Shown: one piece after another, positions 3,738 through 24,000 of the stretch
How positions within the stretch are numbered: the stretch's first letter is position 1
How the letters are laid out: the number at the start of each line of letters is the position of its first letter
Assembly (NCBI GenBank): GCA_902727925.1
Contig: CACVAW010000061.1
Coordinates: forward strand, 42,739-66,738
Length of the DNA stretch: 24,000 nt
Origin: an uncultured Campylobacterales bacterium
GTDB taxonomy: Bacteria; Campylobacterota; Campylobacteria; Campylobacterales; CACVAW01
Direction: 5' to 3'
Notes under the pieces: model-generated
Database searches by the model: none
What the model was told of the DNA's origin: nothing
Seen by the model: the letters and a program-made list of their open reading frames with translations, nothing else
Translations under genes and position numbers: made by a program

Positions 3738-4671
3738 TATAAATAAAATTTCAATAATAATACCAACATATAACGCACAAAGATATTTACCAAAGTTATT
3801 AGATAGTATTAAAACTCAATCTATAAAAAATTATGAACTACTAATAATAGATTCAAGTTCATCTGACAAAACAGTTGAAATTGCTAAAGAATATACTGAA
3901 AATGTGATAGTAATACCTCAAAGTGAATTTGATCATGGTGGTACGAGAGCTAAAGCTGCACAAATAGCTTCAGGGGAGATTCTTGTATATCTTACTCAAG
4001 ATGCACTTCCTTGTGATGATTATACAATAGAGAGTATCATAAAAGTATTTGAAGATGAAAAAATAGGTGCTGCTTATGGTAGGCAGTTAAGCTATGATGA
4101 TACTAATCTTTTTGGTAAGCATCTACGAGAGTTTAATTATAGTAAAAATTCATATATAAGAGATAAAAGTGACATTAAACAATTTGGTTTGAAAACAGCT
4201 TTTTTATCTGATAGTTTTGCTGCTTATCGTAAGAGTGCTTTACAAGATATAGGATTGTTTAAAAGTGATTTGATACTAGGTGAAGATACTTATGCAGGTG
4301 CAAAAATGATATTAGATGGATATAGTCTTGCTTATGTTAGTGAAGCACAAGTATATCATTCCCATAGTTATACCGTGTGGCAAGAATTTAAAAGATATTT
4401 TGATATAGGTGTATTTCATAAATATGAAGACTGGATACTGGAGCGTTTTGGTAAGGCTGAGGGTGAAGGGAAGAGATATATCAAATCTGAAGTTAAGTAT
4501 CTACTTAAGAATAAATCTTGGTATCTATTGCCTGAATGGTTTGTACGCAATGGTATGAAATATTTGGGGTATAAATTAGGTCAAAAATATGAAAAACTAC
4601 CAAAATGGATGATAAAAAGAATGAGTATGCATCATAGATGGTGGGACAAAAAAATAGACTCTAAAAAATAA
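3721..4671 (+). CDS. Family 2 glycosyltransferase
   Basis: It carries 'ISIIIPTYNAQRYLPKLLDSIKTQSIKNYELLIIDSSSSDKT' and a 'YLTQDALP' acidic motif, both typical of a GT2 subfamily. It overlaps the upstream gene by 17 nt, and its stop overlaps the next start (TAATG). Confidence 0.85.
   Translation: MYIKNDINKISIIIPTYNAQRYLPKLLDSIKTQSIKNYELLIIDSSSSDKTVEIAKEYTENVIVIPQSEFDHGGTRAKAAQIASGEILVYLTQDALPCDDYTIESIIKVFEDEKIGAAYGRQLSYDDTNLFGKHLREFNYSKNSYIRDKSDIKQFGLKTAFLSDSFAAYRKSALQDIGLFKSDLILGEDTYAGAKMILDGYSLAYVSEAQVYHSHSYTVWQEFKRYFDIGVFHKYEDWILERFGKAEGEGKRYIKSEVKYLLKNKSWYLLPEWFVRNGMKYLGYKLGQKYEKLPKWMIKRMSMHHRWWDKKIDSKK
3743..3816 (+). repeat. Direct repeat copy B, partner of 2745-2818
   Basis: See copy A. 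This copy lies inside the 5' end of the intact GT2 gene. Confidence 0.85.
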
Positions 4672-6029
4672 TGCAAAAACTAAACCTCAAAGAATCACAA
4701 ACTATAGAATTCAAAGAAGTATGGAAAGACGAGTACTTAAAAACTATATGTGCATTTGCTAATAGTGATGGTGGGGTGATATATATTGGTATTGATGATA
4801 GCTCAAACATAGTAGGTTTAAAAGATACAAAAAATATCATAGAAGTTTTGCCAAATAAGGTAAATAATAGACTTGGTCTTATAGTGGATATTAATTTAAG
4901 ATATAAAAGTAGCTTAGAGTATATCGAGATGATAATCCAAAAAACATATGCACCAATATCATATAATGGAAAGTTTTATAAAAGAAGTGGTAGCAATACA
5001 ATTGAATTAAATGGAGTTAATCTTACAAACTTTTTACTTAAGAAGTATGGCAAGACTTGGGATGATGTTTCTGAAGAAAAATTTGGGCTTGATGAGATAG
5101 ATTTGAGTACTATTGAGAAGTTTAAAAAGCTCTCAAGAGATAGGATACCAGATATACAAAGTCAAACGAATTTAGAAGAACTATTAAGAAAACTTAATCT
5201 ATATGATGGTGAATATCTTAAAAGAGCTGCGATTTTGTTATTTGGTAAGAATCCACAAATGTATTATGTGCAGTCTCATTCTAAGATAGGTAGATTTTTA
5301 AGTGAGACTGATATTCAAAGTAGTGATATCATAGAGGGTAACCTCATAGATCAAGTAGATAAGATTATGGATGTGTTAAGGCTGAAGTATCTTAAAGCTT
5401 ATATCTCGTATGAGGGAATGCATAGAAGAGAAAAGCTTGAATATCCATATGAAGCTCTTCGTGAGGCTGTAATAAATGCACTCATACATAGAGACTATAC
5501 AAATACTTCAAATCTTCAAATAAAAGTATATGATGACAAGCTTGTCATGTATAATGGAGCTACACTAAGTAGTGAAGTACCTATAGATAGGTTTGATAAG
5601 CCTCATCAATCAAAGCCATTTAATCCTACTATGGCAAATGTATTTTATAAGTGTGGGTTTATAGAGAACTGGGGAAGAGGTACACTTAATATCATAGATG
5701 ATTGTGTAGAGTACGGACTACCTAAACCTTTGTTTGAATATGAGTGGACTGCTGTAAGGACTACATTTTTTAAAACCACCCAAGAAACCACCCAAGAAAC
5801 CACCCAAGAAACCACCCAAGAAACCACCCAAGAAACCACAAAGAGCAAAATAGTAAAACTACTAAAAGAGAATCCCAAATACACAAAACAAGATATGATG
5901 AACATACTAAATAAAGGTGACTCAACAATAAAAGAGCATCTTGCAAACCTCAAAAGAGAAGGTATAATAACAAGAGTAGGAAGCACAAAATCAGGATATT
6001 GGAAAATACTAAAAGGAGATAATGAATGA
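4671..6029 (+). CDS. AlbA_2 (Schlafen-type) / HATPase_c_4 / C-terminal winged-helix protein. This family is usually annotated as 'putative DNA-binding, RecG-like ATP-dependent helicase-related transcriptional regulator'
   Basis: The N-terminus 'ESQTIEFKEVWKDEYLKTICAFANSDGGVIYIGIDD' is the AlbA_2 signature. The mid-region 'YPYEALREAVINALIHRDYT' is the HATPase_c_4 signature. The C-terminus 'KIVKLLKENPKYTKQDMMNILNKGDSTIKEHLANLKREGIITRVG' looks like a wHTH. The gene is coupled to both neighbours (TAATG at 5', ATGA at 3'). Confidence 0.75.
   Translation: MQKLNLKESQTIEFKEVWKDEYLKTICAFANSDGGVIYIGIDDSSNIVGLKDTKNIIEVLPNKVNNRLGLIVDINLRYKSSLEYIEMIIQKTYAPISYNGKFYKRSGSNTIELNGVNLTNFLLKKYGKTWDDVSEEKFGLDEIDLSTIEKFKKLSRDRIPDIQSQTNLEELLRKLNLYDGEYLKRAAILLFGKNPQMYYVQSHSKIGRFLSETDIQSSDIIEGNLIDQVDKIMDVLRLKYLKAYISYEGMHRREKLEYPYEALREAVINALIHRDYTNTSNLQIKVYDDKLVMYNGATLSSEVPIDRFDKPHQSKPFNPTMANVFYKCGFIENWGRGTLNIIDDCVEYGLPKPLFEYEWTAVRTTFFKTTQETTQETTQETTQETTQETTKSKIVKLLKENPKYTKQDMMNILNKGDSTIKEHLANLKREGIITRVGSTKSGYWKILKGDNE
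5775..5840 (+). repeat. Perfect 12-bp tandem repeat (ACCACCCAAGAA) x5 plus a partial unit, encoding (TTQE)5-TT
   Basis: Read directly from the sequence. The repeat is in frame (4 codons per unit) and lies between the HATPase_c_4 region and the C-terminal wHTH of the 4671-6029 protein. Confidence 0.95.
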
Positions 6030-10199: not shown

Positions 10200-10538
10200 T
10201 TATATGTCATCATTGTTTTTTGTAGATTCTATTATAACAAATACAACAGAAACTAGGTTAGCTACCAATGCTCCAACGCTAAGAGCAACTGCTGTAGTAG
10301 TACTATCAAATATAACCATAGCCAAAAATGCTGGAATAAGGTGCAAGTCTGATACTAGTGAGCTTGCTAGCATTTGAGCTGAAAGAGCATTTTTTATACC
10401 TATTTTAAGAAATGTTGACATTAGGTTGAACCCAGCTGCTATGAAAAGTATCACAGCGTCATTAAGATATACAAATCCTGCAACTGTAGTCAAACTCATA
10501 AGAGTAAAAAATGTGTATGTAATTCTTTCCCAATTCAT
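10200..10538 (-). CDS. Small integral membrane protein of unknown function (112 aa, about 3-4 TM segments)
   Basis: The ORF has hydrophobic segments and ends 15 nt upstream of serS on the same strand. I recognise no family. Confidence 0.45.
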   Translation of the reverse strand: MNWERITYTFFTLMSLTTVAGFVYLNDAVILFIAAGFNLMSTFLKIGIKNALSAQMLASSLVSDLHLIPAFLAMVIFDSTTTAVALSVGALVANLVSVVFVIIESTKNNDDI

Positions 10539-10554
10539 GTATATCCTTGTTAAT

Positions 10555-10619
10555 TGTAAATTATGAATGATGAGTTATGAATTAGTAGGTATACTAAAAT
10601 TCATCATTTATAATTTACA
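10555..10619. repeat. AT-rich 22-bp-arm inverted repeat (hairpin) immediately 3' of the four-helix-bundle gene
   Basis: The left arm TGTAAATTATGAATGATGAGTT (10555-10576) pairs with AATTCATCATTTATAATTTACA (10598-10619). 20 of 22 positions are complementary, and both mismatches are G:T on the plus strand. The loop is 21 nt. Confidence 0.8.
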
Positions 10620-10621
10620 AT

Positions 10622-10972
10622 TTAATTTCTAGCCTTAGTCGTTATGATTATTGAAGAAATTATTTTTTTAATTTCTTCAATTTTTAGTTTCATATCAGAA
10701 AAAGTATTATCATTAATATAATCAGACTTGAATAAAAGTTCTAACCAATACTCAGTCTCATTAGCTTCTTTTTGAGCTATAGCCATTTTATGAATAAAGT
10801 CTGCTTTGCTTTCAGCATGTTGAGATTCTCTTATCATAGCTCCTATAGATGTTCCACTTCTTAATATCTGTTTAGATAGAACAAACTCGTTTTTAGATTG
10901 AAGAAATTTAAAAATTTTTATAATTTCTAAAGCAAATTCAAAAGACTTATTTTTAATTACATTTTTTTTCAT
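10622..10972 (-). CDS. Four-helix-bundle protein (23S rRNA intervening-sequence protein / Avd-like family)
   Basis: It has 'LRSGTSIGAMIRESQHAESKADFIHKMAIAQKEANETEYWLELL', the hallmark core of the TIGR02436-type four-helix-bundle family. At 116 aa the length is typical. Confidence 0.85.
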   Translation of the reverse strand: MKKNVIKNKSFEFALEIIKIFKFLQSKNEFVLSKQILRSGTSIGAMIRESQHAESKADFIHKMAIAQKEANETEYWLELLFKSDYINDNTFSDMKLKIEEIKKIISSIIITTKARN

Positions 10973-18891: not shown

Positions 18892-18977
18892 AAGAGAAAA
18901 TTTTAGAAGAGAGGATAGAAAAGTTACTTAACTTTAGGGTATTGATAGATATTATTTCATATTTTCAAAGGAAAAAT

Positions 18978-19871
18978 ATGAAAGACAAATCAAGACTATA
19001 CCGAATCCTCTCTATCATCTCAGAATTAGAGCTAGGCAAAAAACTAAGCACAAAAGAACTCTCAAACAAATATAAAATAGATATAAGAACAATACAAAGA
19101 GACTTCAAAGAATACATACTAGAACTTCGTCCAGAGATACAAAAACAAAACAACAAATACTTCCTCAACTCCAAAACAAAATCAAGCAAAGAAAATATCA
19201 TAATATCGATATTTCAGAATATAGCTGACAATATAGGTGGCGAATTCTCAAAAAATGCAAATGAACTATTCTCAAAGCTAAAAGATGATGAAAATATACT
19301 ATACACACAAATAAATATAGAAAATATATCAGACAAACTAGACATCACAAAAGAGATACAAAATGCAATCAAAAATAAAACCACAATAAAGTGCGAATAC
19401 TCCATAAACAACTCATCATATAAAGCTACTATAAACCCACTAAAACTAGCTAACTACTCAGGATACTGGTACCTAATAGCCATAGACAACAAAGACAAAG
19501 TCCTAAAAAAATACTACTTCAACGAAATACAAAAAGTAAGTCTCACAAATAAAATTTTCACATATGAAAAAAATCTAGACAAAATATTAGCAAATGCTAT
19601 ATCAATATGGTTTGAACCAAAAGAACCTTATGAAGTACAACTTCTAGTATCTGCCACTATCTCTAAATACTTCCAAAGACAAGCCCTATCTCCTACACAA
19701 AGAATAATGAAAGAGTACAAAGACAAAAGCATAGAGATATCCATAGACATAACAAACGATATGGAGATAATCCCCATCATCAAGTCATACATACCACATA
19801 TAAAAGTGATAGTTCCTCAAAGAATAAAAGACAAAATCCAAAAAGATATAGAGAAATATATGAGTAATTAA
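18978..19871 (+). CDS. WYL-domain transcriptional regulator (N-terminal HTH + WYL + C-terminal WCX-like extension; BrxR/CapW-like architecture)
   Basis: The HTH is 'RLYRILSIISELELGKKLSTKELSNKYKIDIRTIQRDFKEY'. The WYL core is 'INPLKLANYSGYWYLIAIDNKDKVLKKYYFNEIQKV'. I prefer the ATG at 18978, which has an AAGGA RBS 6 nt upstream, over the TTG at 18942 used in the ORF track. Confidence 0.8.
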   Translation: MKDKSRLYRILSIISELELGKKLSTKELSNKYKIDIRTIQRDFKEYILELRPEIQKQNNKYFLNSKTKSSKENIIISIFQNIADNIGGEFSKNANELFSKLKDDENILYTQINIENISDKLDITKEIQNAIKNKTTIKCEYSINNSSYKATINPLKLANYSGYWYLIAIDNKDKVLKKYYFNEIQKVSLTNKIFTYEKNLDKILANAISIWFEPKEPYEVQLLVSATISKYFQRQALSPTQRIMKEYKDKSIEISIDITNDMEIIPIIKSYIPHIKVIVPQRIKDKIQKDIEKYMSN

Positions 19872-19889
19872 ACTATGCCATAGTATAAT
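19872..19889 (+). promoter_or_regulatory. Perfect 6-1-6 palindrome ACTATG-C-CATAGT overlapping a consensus TATAAT -10 box; candidate operator/promoter of the ATPase gene
   Basis: The palindrome spans 19872-19884 and starts immediately after the WYL stop codon. TATAAT is at 19884-19889. A GGGAG RBS is at 19912-19916 and the ATG at 19923. Confidence 0.5.
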
Positions 19890-19922
19890 AATATATATTT
19901 TTAGAATATATGGGAGTTTAAA

Positions 19923-21086
19923 ATGCAAGATATATTATATAGATCTAATCCATGGTGGGAAGAAAACTATTCGTTTGAGGGTATTACTAGAAATATTTAT
20001 TTAAACGAAATGAAACTTGTATTTGAGAATCCTGATATTGTTTTTTTGACAGGGCTTAGAAGGGTAGGTAAAACTACACTTATGAAAAGCTTTATTTCTC
20101 ATTTGATAAATCATAAAAAAATAGAACCACAACAGATATTTTATATTAGTCTTGATTTGTTAGCTTTGTCAGATTTGAGTATTCAAGATATTCTAAAAGA
20201 GTATAGAACATTACTCAAGTTGAGTAATAGTACTAAAACATATTTGTTTTTTGATGAAGTCACTGCAAAAAAGGATTATCATCAAGAGTTAAAAAATCTC
20301 TATGACTTAGAAAGTGTAAAAATATATGCTTCAAGTTCTAGTGCCTCATTACTCAAAGACAAAAATGCATATCTCACAGGGAGACAAAGAGTACTAGAAA
20401 TAATGCCTTTAAGTTTTGAAGAATATTTGAACTTCAAAAAAATCAAAATCAAAAAATCAGAATCATATTTACTTAAAAGCTACTTTGAGGATTATATGCA
20501 AAGTGGAGGTATGCCAGAATTTGTAAAAACAAAAGATATAAGCTATCTACAAAATCTAATAGACAATATAATATACAAAGACATAATCGCCCATAACAAT
20601 ATAAAAAATGAACAGACTATAAGAGACTTTTATAAGCTTTTAATGGAACGAAGTGGCAAACAACTAAGTCTAAATAAAATAGCAAATATATTAGATATAG
20701 GAGCAGATAGTGCTAGGAGGTATCTTAGCTATTTTGAAGAGACTTATCTCATATATACAGTAAAAAAATATGGCAAACTTAATGAAAGAATCAAAAACCC
20801 CAAAAAAATATACTCAGCAGATATAGGACTCAAAAATGTAGTAACTGGATTTAGAGATTTAGGTGCTGTATTTGAGAATATGGTCTATCTCAAAATCAAA
20901 TCTCAAAACCCAAGGTATGTATATGAAAATGGTATAGAACTAGACTTCATGACCGAAAACAAAACTCTAATAGAAGTTAAATATAACTCCAAATTAAACA
21001 AAAATCAAGAAAAATTATACGAAAAAATCGAAGCAAACAAAAAAATAAGAATCCAAAATATAGAAGATTTTTTGAAGTTCCTATAA
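19923..21086 (+). CDS. AAA+ ATPase with a DUF4143-type C-terminal region (COG1373-like; AAA_14 + DUF4143 with a restriction-endonuclease-like tail)
   Basis: Walker A is 'GLRRVGKTT' and Walker B is 'YLFFDEV'. The DUF4143-like segment is 'YKDIIAHNNIKNEQTIRDFYKLLMERSGKQLSLNKIANIL'. The C-terminal 'IELDFM...LIEVKY' is a D...ExK-like motif. Confidence 0.8.
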   Translation: MQDILYRSNPWWEENYSFEGITRNIYLNEMKLVFENPDIVFLTGLRRVGKTTLMKSFISHLINHKKIEPQQIFYISLDLLALSDLSIQDILKEYRTLLKLSNSTKTYLFFDEVTAKKDYHQELKNLYDLESVKIYASSSSASLLKDKNAYLTGRQRVLEIMPLSFEEYLNFKKIKIKKSESYLLKSYFEDYMQSGGMPEFVKTKDISYLQNLIDNIIYKDIIAHNNIKNEQTIRDFYKLLMERSGKQLSLNKIANILDIGADSARRYLSYFEETYLIYTVKKYGKLNERIKNPKKIYSADIGLKNVVTGFRDLGAVFENMVYLKIKSQNPRYVYENGIELDFMTENKTLIEVKYNSKLNKNQEKLYEKIEANKKIRIQNIEDFLKFL

Positions 21087-21293
21087 ACGACAGTATAAGT
21101 CGCTAATTTTTGATAGAATGTTGAGATTGAAAAGTATCATAAGAGAAGGAAATTTATGAAAAATGTAGAGATATTAAAAGATATCTTATAAACGACAGTA
21201 TAAGTCGCTAAAGTTTGATAGAATGTTGCAAATGAAAAGTATGATAAGAGAAGGAAGTTTATGGAAAATGTAGAGATATTAAAAGATATCTTA
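21082..21293 (+). repeat. Tandem duplication, 2 x 105 bp, about 92% identical (8 mismatches). It covers the intergenic region plus the RBS, start codon and first about 11 codons of the nuclease gene
   Basis: Copy 1 is 21082-21188 and copy 2 is 21187-21293, aligned by hand with an offset of exactly 105. Copy 1 carries a mini-ORF MKNVEILKDIL* (21156-21191). Copy 2 carries the real start MENVEILKDIL... (21261). Confidence 0.9.
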
Positions 21294-22487
21294 ATAAAGT
21301 TAAAAAGTTATGATGAGTATTTAAAAGAAAAAAAATCAGAAGGATATAACAATTATAACCCTTTAACAGTACTTAGAAAAAGCTATGATGAAGTTGGGTT
21401 GCATTCTGCTTTTATATATTCTTTAATCAACCCAAAAGGTAATCATTACCGAGATGATACATTTACTAAATTATTTTTAAAAATAGTTTTAAAATTAGAA
21501 AATTATGGGAAAATCTATGATGTGAGAAGAGAGTATATTATCGAAAATCAAAGAAGAATAGATTTTTATATAAATACTGAAAAGTACAAAATAGCTATAG
21601 AGATGAAAATATATGCAGGTGATCAAAAAAATCAAATATCTGACTACTATAAAGCTGTAAGAAAAATAGCAAGTGAAGATAGCAGTAAAGAAAAAGTATA
21701 CTATCTATCTCTGTATGAGAGAGATGCTACAAAATCAAGTGCTAAAGATCGTACATATACAAAAATATCTTTTAAAGATCATATTTTAAATTGGTTAAAA
21801 GAGTGTATTAAAGCTATTAAAAATGAAGACAAAAATGAATTATCAAACATAATACAATCTATAGAGTTCTATAAAGAAATAATACAAATACTTACAAAGC
21901 AAAAGCAAAAGGAAAAGAAAATAATGGATATAGTCGATTATGTAAAAGAGAAAAAAGTAAATTTAGAAGATATATTTAAAATAGCCCCTGATATAGTAGA
22001 AATCCAAGGAAAATTATTTTATGAGTTTTTTGAGAGTTTTACAGAAAGAATTGCACAATATTCAATTGATAATATGGACAATATAGATGATAATATAAAG
22101 AATAGAAAAAGAGTTTTTAATGAAAGAAAATGTAAAGATTTTTTTTCAAACAAATCATCATTAAATGCAGGTACATTTTTTAAAATAGATGATGAATATT
22201 TACTTAATATATTTATGGCTAAGAAAGCACTATATTGTGCTATAAGAAAATATACTAAAGATGGTGAGACATATGAGTTAAAGAGATTGAATAAAAGTAA
22301 TAAAGATGATAGTGAATTATTTTTGGAATTGAATCATTCCTCATATCCACATCAACACTTTTTTTCTTATAGTATGATACTTTCTGACGATAACTATAAA
22401 GTTATATATGACTTTGAGAATACAAGTTTTGCAGAAAATTTTTATAAGTTATTAAAGAAAATTAAACAATACAAAGAATCAATATGA
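21261..22487 (+). CDS. PD-(D/E)xK nuclease-family protein (PDDEXK_4-like N-domain, about 1-190) with an uncharacterised C-terminal half
   Basis: It has 'YNPLTVLRKSYDEVGLHSAFIYSLINPKGNHYRDDTFTKLFLK' followed by 'RRIDFYINTEKYKIAIEMKIYAGDQKNQISDYY'. This matches the D...E-x-K core and the trailing Q-[LI]-x-x-Y typical of this family. Confidence 0.75.
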   Translation: MENVEILKDILIKLKSYDEYLKEKKSEGYNNYNPLTVLRKSYDEVGLHSAFIYSLINPKGNHYRDDTFTKLFLKIVLKLENYGKIYDVRREYIIENQRRIDFYINTEKYKIAIEMKIYAGDQKNQISDYYKAVRKIASEDSSKEKVYYLSLYERDATKSSAKDRTYTKISFKDHILNWLKECIKAIKNEDKNELSNIIQSIEFYKEIIQILTKQKQKEKKIMDIVDYVKEKKVNLEDIFKIAPDIVEIQGKLFYEFFESFTERIAQYSIDNMDNIDDNIKNRKRVFNERKCKDFFSNKSSLNAGTFFKIDDEYLLNIFMAKKALYCAIRKYTKDGETYELKRLNKSNKDDSELFLELNHSSYPHQHFFSYSMILSDDNYKVIYDFENTSFAENFYKLLKKIKQYKESI

Positions 22488-22891
22488 AAATCCTAAACGC
22501 ATCAAAAATAAATTTCACTCTAACACCTTCAAAAGGCATAGAGATAACAGATGATATAAAAAGTGCTGACATAGTAGTGATAGAGGGAAAAGAAAACTAC
22601 CTCAAATACAAATCAAACTTCACAGATAAAATGAGGTATATACTCATATACCCATTTGACTTTGAGGGACAAAGACCTAAAAGTGATATGGACATTATAA
22701 AAAAAGAATTATCAAACTATATAATCATAGATAGAAATATAGCCAAAGAGTTCAAGCCAAAACCACCTAAAAATATATTTGAAAAACTTTTTAAGTCTAA
22801 AGAAATATCTATAAAAGAAAGTTTTGAGATGTTTGAGGAGATTATTTGGAAAGAGGTAGAAAAAATCAAAGGTAAAAATATTGGAATATAA
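22484..22891 (+). CDS. Hypothetical 135-aa protein, translationally coupled (ATGA overlap) to the nuclease gene
   Basis: The ORF overlaps the upstream stop by 4 nt. I recognise no family with confidence. See the findings for local collinear motifs reminiscent of FtsZ. Confidence 0.45.
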   Translation: MKILNASKINFTLTPSKGIEITDDIKSADIVVIEGKENYLKYKSNFTDKMRYILIYPFDFEGQRPKSDMDIIKKELSNYIIIDRNIAKEFKPKPPKNIFEKLFKSKEISIKESFEMFEEIIWKEVEKIKGKNIGI

Positions 22892-23077
22892 TCAAGATAA
22901 TTTTTTTGAAAAAGAAATTAATAATCAACAAAAAATGATAAATGAAAAATTAGAATCATATAATTCTAGTGACTTCTTTTTTAAATTACATAGGCTTATT
23001 AGAACTATTGAAGAGTTTATTATTATTTCACCAAATAAATATATCAATATTTAAGCAAAAAGTATTATAATACATCT

Positions 23078-23485
23078 ATGAAAATAGATGCAAGAAAAAT
23101 AAGTACAGAAGCTCAACAAGAGAAGCGAAATTTAGCAATAAAACTTAGGAAAAAAGGTATGACTTGCAAAGAGGTTGCTAATATTGTAGAGATCAATCAT
23201 ACAACAATATCAAGATGGTATGCAAGATATAAAAGAGATGGTGATAAATCTATAAAAGTTGGACAAAGGGGAAGAAAAATAGGAGCAAAGAGAAGTTTAT
23301 TCCCAGAACAAGAACAACAGATAATAAGACAACTAATAGATAAGAATCCACAACAGTTGCAGTTTAAATTTGCCTTATGGACAAGAGAGGCAGTGAGATA
23401 TCTTATAAAGCATGAGTTAGGTATAGATATGCCAATATCAACAGTAGGACATTACCTCAAGAAATGGAAGTTTAGACTTAATTAA
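23078..23485 (+). mobile_element. IS630-family transposase N-terminal DNA-binding fragment; the DDE catalytic domain is absent
   Basis: It has 'GMTCKEVANIVEINHTTISRWYARYKRDG' (HTH) and 'FKFALWTREAVRYLIKHELGIDMPISTVGHYLKKWKF', typical of the paired HTH region of IS630/Tc1 transposases. It ends at 135 aa, whereas full-length proteins are around 340 aa. Confidence 0.7.
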
Positions 23486-23551: not shown

Positions 23552-24000
23552 ATGGGTTATAAAAAAGTTCTAAAAAATGTCCAAAATGTGATAGTAAAGA
23601 AGTAATAAAAGTAGGTAAAAGAAGAGATATCCAGAGATATTTATGTAAGGTTTGTAAATCTAAATTTCAAAACAAAAGACGTACAAGAAAGCTTCAACAA
23701 GTTATATTTGAAGAGTATTTTTTAAAGAGACAAACATTAAAGCAACTAGCCAGTAAATATGGTAAATCAATACCATGGATAATGAAGCAAAGAGATGAAT
23801 ATAATATTGAGAGTAAAACGCATAATCCAAGAGCCATAAATCTAGTATGTGATGCTACATTTTATGGTAAGAAAAAAGATAAGTTAGGTACTTTAGTATT
23901 TAAAGATGTAGAGTCTAAAGAGATACTTATTTGGAAACATATTGAAAGTGAAACAGTAGAAGATTATAGATATTTAAAAGAAGAGTTGTATAACCTAGGT
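23552..24000 (+). pseudogene. IS1-family-like transposase (zinc-ribbon N-terminus), frame-disrupted at an A6 run and running off the window end
   Basis: The ATG at 23552 gives MGYKKVLKN..., which stops at 23605. The long open frame is (K)KCPKCDSKEVIKVGKRRDIQRYLCKVCKSKF...LVCDATFYGKKKDKLGTLVF. It opens at 23563, has no start codon of its own, and is reached by a -1 shift within AAAAAA (23572-23577). The pattern 'CPxC...G...QRYLCxxC' matches IS1 InsA. Confidence 0.55.

Follow-up and report, generated by a model that had tools for sequence, protein, structure and literature searches.

The DNA considered here is a 24,000-nucleotide stretch of contig CACVAW010000061.1 of an uncultured Campylobacterales bacterium, whose genome is a metagenome-assembled one of low GC content (this whole stretch is referred to as the window), and the subject is a group of four co-directional open reading frames (ORFs) on the forward strand, g1 to g4, which lie between a gene of the ilvB type and the debris of an insertion sequence (IS) of the IS630 family. 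All four are present in the ORF list of the window, between the housekeeping gene and the IS debris as the sequence-only reading of this DNA had described, and the gene call on another assembly of the locus (L001; compared loci are designated by L and a number) gives the same four genes. That earlier reading considered them to be a candidate undescribed defence module. The analysis presented here favours another view, according to which the locus is probably a small mosaic defence-type islet of three separable units, and not one four-gene system. The islet would have been inserted after ilvB, and its units would be unit A (g1), unit B (the g2 cassette) and unit C (g3 together with g4). The GC (guanine plus cytosine) content of the islet is 0.24-0.28, as compared with 0.34-0.36 in the neighbouring ilvB region, and this low GC content, together with the IS flank, points to accessory DNA.

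The gene g2 (19923..21086, + strand) is predicted from its PADLOC and Pfam matches to encode an AAA+ ATPase, followed by a probable winged helix and a DUF4143 tail resembling PD-(D/E)xK nucleases, which is the architecture of the PADLOC family PDC-S01. The Pfam matches are AAA_14 (3e-29) and DUF4143 (3e-22), and the best PADLOC match is PDLC04787 (1.1e-74), which aligns residues 19-371 with profile positions 9-374 of 412; matches to five other PDC-S01 models were obtained as well. The motifs GLRRVGKTT and FFDEV, pointed out in the earlier reading, are present and fall on conserved columns, and in 49 homologues of g2 the G-RRVGKT motif (Walker A), the F-DE motif (Walker B) and the C-terminal E..D..E.K pattern are kept. 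The winged-helix region (residues 229-297) gives weak HTH_64 and DcuR-type matches. The gene g3 (21261..22487, + strand) is likewise assigned by PADLOC and Pfam, as a PD-(D/E)xK nuclease of the PDDEXK_4 type with a variable C-terminal half of about 200 residues, and it corresponds to the PADLOC family PDC-S26. Here the Pfam match (PDDEXK_4, PF14281, 2e-31) covers only residues 32-196, and PADLOC matches are PDLC04983 (1.5e-52, residues 1-403), PDLC04980 (7e-46) and PDLC04974 (1e-39). The RIDFYI...IEMKI motif is also present on conserved columns, and D101, E114, K116 and Q125 are invariant among 27 homologues. Pfam thus agrees with the domain calls made earlier for g1 (WYL/WCX), g2 (AAA_14/DUF4143) and g3 (PDDEXK_4).

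When the four proteins are scanned with PADLOC, the matches are to WYL, PDC-S01 and PDC-S26 models, besides weak ones to Cas3c (in the WYL part), PDC-M45C and mad8, and no component of Gabija, Septu, Lamassu, PARIS, Wadjet, BREX or CBASS is matched; the earlier reading, too, had recognised no named system in this combination of genes. The same scan removes the claim of an undescribed module, as it maps g2 to PDC-S01 and g3 to PDC-S26, which are two separate single-gene candidates; the locus is not an undescribed system because its components belong to catalogued candidate families. The phage defence candidates (PDCs) were proposed from members embedded in BREX, DISARM or type I restriction-modification (R-M) operons (bioRxiv 10.1101/2024.01.29.577857). 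In published work, PDC-S01 combines an ATPase with a fused PD-(D/E)xK domain, is an unvalidated candidate and is reported to rank fourth in frequency among the defence entries of prokaryotes (PMC12988326). No match to PHROG was found for g2, g3 or g4. The defence-type flavour seen by the sequence-only reading is nevertheless retained, since g2 and g3 are full-length PADLOC candidates, relatives of g3 occur in R-M operons and a distant relative of g2 occurs in a type I-B cas operon.

The co-occurrence of genes 2-4 in other genomes had been set beforehand as a test of the four genes as one module, and it turns out negative. For PDC-S26, the sample was composed of the 80 best matches with one genome per species, resulting in 79 loci, of which 74 have a callable PDC-S26 gene. 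The neighbourhoods of these genes were analysed by iterated profile searches of all ORFs, by Pfam annotation of the immediate neighbours and by all-against-all clustering of the neighbours, and the three approaches agree. For g2, 26 non-redundant loci with relatives that are 45-74% identical were used, comprising 133 neighbouring ORFs. An AAA_14/DUF4143 gene is found near PDC-S26 in 2 of the 74 loci (adjacent in L078 and on the opposite strand in L004), neither a WYL gene nor a PDC-S26 gene is found near the g2 relatives in any of the 26 loci, and g4 has a single relative. A gene of the g1 family, with WYL and WCX domains, directly adjoins the PDC-S26 gene in 11 of the 74 loci. WYL genes account for 11 of 100 adjacent ORFs versus 6 of 416 ORFs at least four genes away (Fisher p = 4e-5), and WYL is the top neighbour family of PDC-S26, by Pfam as well as by clustering (14 loci). 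The pair is seen in both gene orders, with codons that overlap or abut in L008 and L013, and it is present in Sulfuricurvum, Sulfurovum, Helicobacter, Campylobacter and Arcobacteraceae, and also in Chitinophagaceae (Bacteroidota). The recurrent partners among the four genes are therefore the g1 and g3 families only, and the conserved evolutionary link is that of unit A with unit C. Independent neighbours, a possibility that the earlier reading allowed for as a caveat, is thus the better description of the locus, except that it does not hold for the g1 and g3 families.

These data bear directly on the proposal that the locus is one four-gene system, in which a WYL repressor would govern an operon of the g2 ATPase, the g3 effector nuclease and the g4 partner, with g2 and g3 acting jointly. 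The genes are indeed co-directional and closely spaced, the ATGA overlap of g3 and g4 noted earlier is present, an NTPase with a nuclease is a common layout of defence systems, and in L078, from Bacteroidota, the AAA_14/DUF4143 gene lies directly 3' of the PDC-S26 gene. The counts given above argue the other way, and considering the abundance of PDC-S01 (PMC12988326), an occasional chance adjacency is to be expected. Furthermore, g2 is accompanied at every location by a conserved promoter and palindrome of its own, g3 has a promoter-like region of its own, and g2 already possesses a nuclease-like domain. The four-gene system is already largely refuted by the co-occurrence tests, and we regard it as highly improbable.

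The relatives of g2 are solitary and occur in unrelated contexts, with no constant neighbour among the 26 loci. These contexts include the order dxr, g2, Dam-like methyltransferase, tsaD; the order flagellin-glycosylation genes, g2, fliD; and a RelB/YafQ pair with AAA_14 fragments. In Campylobacterota the family is large: its protein clusters number over 100, at 63-74% identity. When the relatives are aligned, no conserved sequence is found 3' of the g2 stop codon and no direct repeats are found flanking the gene. The g2 unit, about 1.25 kb long, is a self-contained single-gene cassette that includes a promoter of its own. Its AAA_14 plus DUF4143 architecture and its solitary single-gene habit are those of PDC-S01 in PADLOC, with nothing structural that differs; what the Campylobacterota subfamily adds to PDC-S01 as described is a conserved palindrome/-10 element upstream of the gene. 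Three further observations concern the surroundings of g2 relatives. In Sulfurimonas (L084 6001-8171, and L085), the stop codon of a 71%-identical relative and the start of a D12-class (Dam-like) methyltransferase gene overlap, between dxr and tsaD. On an Arcobacter cloacae plasmid (L115 3890-5636), a 32%-identical relative is located between cas3 and cas4 of a type I-B CRISPR-cas operon. In L083 (124-3161), two extra fragments of the g2 family are found beside an intact relative and the RelB/YafQ pair, one of them with its own palindromic element, suggesting that the g2 cassette was locally inserted or duplicated more than once.

The palindromic element of the g2 cassette was identified by a pattern search and by alignment of upstream regions. 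In the window it reads TTAAACTA-TGCCA-TAGTATAA and occupies 19868-19888 (+ strand), and the 13-nucleotide palindrome ACTATGCCATAGT (19872-19884) lies within it. The right arm of the element is part of the -10 box TATAAT (19884-19889), and its left edge overlaps the stop codon of g1 (19869-19871). Upstream of the g2 relatives the conserved form is TTATACTA-N5-TAGTATAA, as seen when aligning 18 contexts, with the TATAAT box about 35 nucleotides before the start codon. Across 1.16 Mb of fetched loci the pattern has 23 matches with at most two mismatches; all 19 matches with at most one mismatch (19/19) are located 17-35 nucleotides 5' of the start of a g2-family gene, and the four remaining matches, each with two mismatches, lie elsewhere. 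The copy at 19868-19888 is the sole match in the window. Since no WYL gene is present in those loci of g2 relatives, the element is to be assigned to the g2 cassette rather than to g1. The palindrome at 19872-19884 to which the sequence-only reading drew attention therefore exists, but its proposed role as an operator of g1 is not plausible, as it is part of an element that accompanies g2 where no WYL gene is nearby. We infer that the palindrome is a putative operator, at which the winged-helix region of g2 itself could mediate autoregulation.

The same region of the DNA invites the view that the functional pair is g1 with g2, where the WYL regulator would control the PDC-S01 gene located 3' of it and g3-g4 would be a separate, unregulated neighbour. 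The two genes are separated by 51 bp, with the g2 palindrome adjoining the stop codon of g1, and because the coding sequence of g1 covers the expected -35 position of the g2 promoter, read-through from g1 may matter. Regulators of the BrxR type are usually found upstream of variable cargo (PMC9122601), and plasmid-borne homologues of the g1 family precede diverse genes. This pairing is nonetheless unlikely when the wider comparison is considered: the 26 loci of g2 relatives contain no WYL gene nearby, yet the palindrome is present in all loci that keep the upstream DNA, and no other family partners the g3 family nearly as often as WYL does.

The regulator itself, g1 (18978..19871, + strand), is a 297-residue protein assigned from Pfam, PADLOC and the comparison of profiles with structures. 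Its start codon is taken as the ATG preceded by an AAGGA ribosome-binding site, the earliest start given by the ORF finder being a TTG at 18942. The Pfam matches to WYL (4e-8) and WCX (1e-7) are both above the cut-off, and the N-terminal helix-turn-helix (HTH) matches of the HTH_11/DeoR type are weak and below it; in PADLOC, g1 matches only the generic 'WYL' models (4e-21 and 1e-16). As a single sequence, g1 has no match among solved structures. A profile built from 20 members of the family has its best E-value with PafBC (6sj9, 1e-23), where the best stretch is in the WYL region, followed by DriD (8tp8, 2e-16, over residues 11-299) and the WYL protein 9pfq (about 1e-16, full length), and it matches CapW/BrxR in the WYL region alone (4e-9 to 8e-5). 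Judged by these profile matches, g1 is a bona fide winged helix-turn-helix (wHTH)-WYL-WCX protein, and its predicted affinity is nearer to the damage-responsive activators PafBC and DriD than to the defence repressors BrxR and CapW. The earlier assignment of g1 to the BrxR/CapW type thus holds for the three-domain architecture, which is shared, as is the location beside defence-type genes, and fails for the sequence, in which the similarity to BrxR/CapW is confined to the WYL region. The placement differs as well, because in most PDC-S26 pairs the WYL gene is downstream of the nuclease gene, unlike the upstream position typical of BrxR/CapW-type regulators. PafBC and DriD are the closest matches of the g1-family profile and have the same domain order, but they control chromosomal damage regulons, whereas g1 is placed in an accessory islet beside nuclease genes.

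A short sequence shared by the upstream regions of g1 and g3 was also considered. The octamer TTGATAGA is found at 18942, 21110 and 21215, lying 36-46 nucleotides before the starts of g1 and of g3 and at the corresponding position in the upstream duplicate copy of the g3 promoter region (see below). It could be a common -35 box or a regulator site. With 5 copies in the window versus 2.3 expected, its enrichment is marginal and not significant alone, and for this reason it is not claimed as an operator of g1.

The nuclease g3 has a D-ExK-Q core and relatives in type I R-M loci, as have the PDC-S26 proteins of PADLOC, the latter feature being the one by which PDCs are defined. After WYL genes, the next commonest neighbours of PDC-S26 are type I R-M subunits, with hsdS upstream (4 loci), hsdM around, and hsdR and N6_Mtase downstream; relatives are present inside type I R-M operons and also adjoin Abi_2, Mrr, GmrSD and SIR2 genes. 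In the AlphaFold2 (AF2) model of g3, the nuclease core has a predicted local distance difference test (pLDDT) score above 90 and the C-terminal half has values of 50-80. Foldseek searches with g3 return only PD-(D/E)xK folds (Bax1, R2 endonuclease, Cdn1, McrC and Hjc), all weak when compared with the PDB, and the best viral match is a 200-residue phage PD-(D/E)XK protein (2e-8), which covers only the N-terminal half. The nearest relative of g3 is 42% identical. The C-terminal half is highly variable across the family, and this variability fits a specificity or sensing role, so that this half is presumed to be a sensing or specificity domain. No reports of anti-phage experiments on PDC-S26 were found in the literature searched. 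Multiplication around PDC-S26 genes takes different forms: paralogues occur in tandem, with three in a row in L036 (5234-9296) and three copies in L023, and in a Helicobacter cetorum metagenome-assembled genome (L024 6105-14038) a block composed of a WYL gene, a 138-residue ORF and a 149-residue ORF is duplicated about 6 kb apart around a PDC-S26 gene.

The DNA before g3 contains a tandem duplication of 2 x 105 bp with 91% identity (21079-21183 and 21184-21288, + strand), a feature absent from the account of the sequence-only reading. The duplicate repeats the promoter-like region of g3, its ribosome-binding site and its first 9-10 codons, and it generates an 11-codon mini-ORF (21156-21191, MKNVEILKDIL*) exactly 105 nucleotides 5' of the g3 start. 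The junctions have a C(T/C)TATAA microhomology in common with the end of g2. The 174-nucleotide gap between g2 and g3 is also present in the independent assemblies L001 and L002. The possibility that the 105-bp repeat is a target-site duplication around g2 is ruled out; both copies are downstream of g2, which makes this a tandem duplication. The promoter-like region of g3, own and duplicated, is distinct from that of g2.

The last gene of the islet, g4 (22484..22891, + strand), encodes a 135-residue lineage-specific protein and overlaps g3 by the ATGA sequence. It has no match in Pfam, PADLOC, NCBIfam or PHROG, and its relatives amount to one among 5.8 billion sequences and one when 1.84 billion representatives are searched with a profile and without filters. 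Compared with this sole relative, the ratio of nonsynonymous to synonymous substitutions (dN/dS) is 0.25 at a dS of 0.44. The gene is real and under selection, and it is a near-ORFan. The relative is encoded on a 904-bp contig, where it overlaps the stop codon of a gene with a C-terminus that aligns with the last part of the PDC-S26 profile, and a DUF2779 gene then follows. The AF2 model of g4 (pLDDT 45) is too poor for use. It is plausible that g4, translationally coupled to g3, serves the nuclease as a modulator, an inhibitor or an adaptor.

The DUF2779 gene recurs as a third partner beside the pair of PDC-S26 and WYL in Campylobacterota, in varying order (L010, L032, L031, L113, L114 and L003), so that unit A and unit C are often joined by DUF2779 in this phylum. 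In L010 and L032 the order is DUF2779, PDC-S26, WYL, and in L031 DUF2779 lies beside PDC-S26. On the A. butzleri plasmid p63 the genes PD-(D/E)XK, DUF2779 and WYL follow each other in a row and are then followed by IS630; L113 is the A. butzleri plasmid NZ_CP104379.1, and DUF2779 also adjoins PDC-S26 on the Arcobacter plasmid p82. DUF2779 itself has weak Cas4 matches; its published description is that of a solo-Cas4-like nuclease to which a second, exonuclease-like region is fused (PMC13621843). The trio of PDC-S26, DUF2779 and WYL is not a multi-gene system in PADLOC-DB v2.0.0. PDC-S26 is catalogued as a single gene, whereas g3 and its relatives in the 11 loci counted above are paired with a WYL regulator, often with DUF2779 as an additional partner in Campylobacterota, and with the ORFan g4 as a partner in two cases. 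These solo-Cas4-like nucleases, recurrent elsewhere, are absent here, as a tblastn search of the window finds no remnant of DUF2779. Given this absence and the IS debris at the expected place, the PDC-S26 unit of this islet may be incomplete.

A defence function of the islet is predicted from the families to which its genes belong, and the most likely working model of the three units is the following. The WYL regulator would hold the nuclease operon in check, and it would release or activate the operon when its WYL domain binds a nucleic-acid signal. This signal could be, for example, single-stranded DNA (ssDNA), as sensed by CapW, DriD and PafBC; for CapW, the sensing of ssDNA has been reported (PMC11662680). 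The g3 nuclease would then degrade DNA, and g4 would modulate the nuclease. The g2 protein would be an NTP-driven nuclease that works separately from the other units and keeps its own promoter repressed.

It can also be asked if these genes serve immunity at all. The gene g2 could form a cassette of a selfish or addictive nature, or else encode a housekeeping ATPase for DNA transactions, in either case spreading from one intergenic site to another, and g3 (with DUF2779 in its relatives) could be a nuclease for DNA repair or for the maintenance of mobile elements, under a damage-responsive WYL activator like PafBC or DriD. This would be in line with the unusual conservation of the g2 relatives across their many clusters and with their positions between housekeeping genes, at times as several copies or fragments (L083 and L096), with the affinity of the g1 family by sequence to PafBC/DriD rather than to BrxR/CapW, and with the report that DUF2779 is quasi-essential in JCVI-syn3.0 (PMC13621843). 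It would also fit the lack of protection by the tested PDC-S01 representative (10.1101/2024.09.26.614923). Such roles are difficult to reconcile with the PDC-S26 relatives inside type I R-M operons and beside Abi_2, Mrr, GmrSD and SIR2 genes, with the g2 relative inside a cas operon and with the low GC content and IS flank of the islet, which point to accessory DNA, and both families were picked as candidates for being embedded in defence systems (10.1101/2024.01.29.577857). A non-immune explanation is consequently not a probable one, in our estimate.

The view of the locus as a mosaic of three defence-type units has to be weighed against several points. Because the sample of the 80 best matches is rich in Campylobacterota, the 11 adjacencies of WYL and PDC-S26 are not fully independent. 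The relatives of g1 on Campylobacterota plasmids adjoin other cargo too, including a GNAT gene, an AAA/VWA trio and a rep gene, so that the g1 family is promiscuous, as reported for BrxR, whose homologues accompany many different systems (PMC9122601), and g1 could equally regulate g2 in this locus. No motif common to the upstream regions of the WYL/PDC-S26 pairs was found, nor an operator common to the upstream regions of g1 and g3. The idea that g2 may bind its palindrome comes from the weak HTH matches and the lack of another constant neighbour. The order g1-g2-g3 could be an ancestral arrangement instead of the result of insertion. Concerning defence, PDC-S01 and PDC-S26 are only candidates (bioRxiv 10.1101/2024.01.29.577857), and of the candidates examined in E. 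coli B, four gave protection against T7, T5 or T4, the one PDC-S01 representative not being among them (bioRxiv 10.1101/2024.09.26.614923).

The surroundings of the islet complete the description of the window. On the upstream side, the flank consists of glyS, followed by the ilvB-type gene. The right edge of the islet is marked by the N-terminal 135 residues of a truncated IS630 transposase (23078..23485, + strand), which is considered here only as context. This ORF matches the NCBIfam family transpos_IS630 (4e-21) under the family cut-off and is 59.5% identical to residues 5-135 of a 349-residue IS630 transposase. Near 23050 there is a break in each of three independent short-read assemblies, suggesting that a repeat with multiple copies is present. 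A second transposase-like, frameshifted ORF begins at 23563 and has a CxxC...CxxC zinc finger, with an ATG at 23553 that is out of frame across an A-run. No tRNA genes and no Rfam matches were found, and the hits of the promoter and terminator scan are at chance level and were not used. Elsewhere in the window, at 4671-6029 (+ strand), a protein with Schlafen AlbA_2, HATPase_c_4 and ArsR-type HTH domains is encoded inside a cluster of glycosyltransferase and sugar-nucleotide genes; it matches the PADLOC pAgo model (6.5e-22) and Argonaute-associated (Aga) models, and its gene may be a further defence-type gene of the window. At 10200-10972 (- strand), between serS and secF, a gene of the 23S rRNA-intervening-sequence family (10622-10972) is located beside a DUF6394 gene (10200-10538).

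Beyond the mosaic islet itself, a more far-reaching and tentative proposal can be made, which we hold to be possible rather than probable. PDC-S26 might be the core of an undescribed multi-gene system, made of the nuclease, the WYL sensor-regulator and, in Campylobacterota, DUF2779, with lineage add-ons such as g4, and switched on by the nucleic-acid signal sensed by the WYL domain; the PDC-S01 cassettes might be portable plug-in units, separately autoregulated via the -10 palindrome. The WYL (and DUF2779) partnership of PDC-S26 may be new, and so may the conserved palindromic promoter of Campylobacterota PDC-S01; neither was found in the papers searched, subscription journals being outside the scope of this search.

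The locus reveals no new class of immune system; it provides three modest, testable leads. In view of its WYL and DUF2779 partners, PDC-S26 may be mis-scored as a single-gene candidate, in which case testing the nuclease by itself might not work or might prove toxic. The palindromic promoter offers a handle on the regulation of PDC-S01 and a marker of the cassette boundaries in the Campylobacterota branch of the family. Finally, stacked independent cassettes can mimic a tight layout of regulator, ATPase, nuclease and small ORF, which matters for the automated discovery of defence systems.

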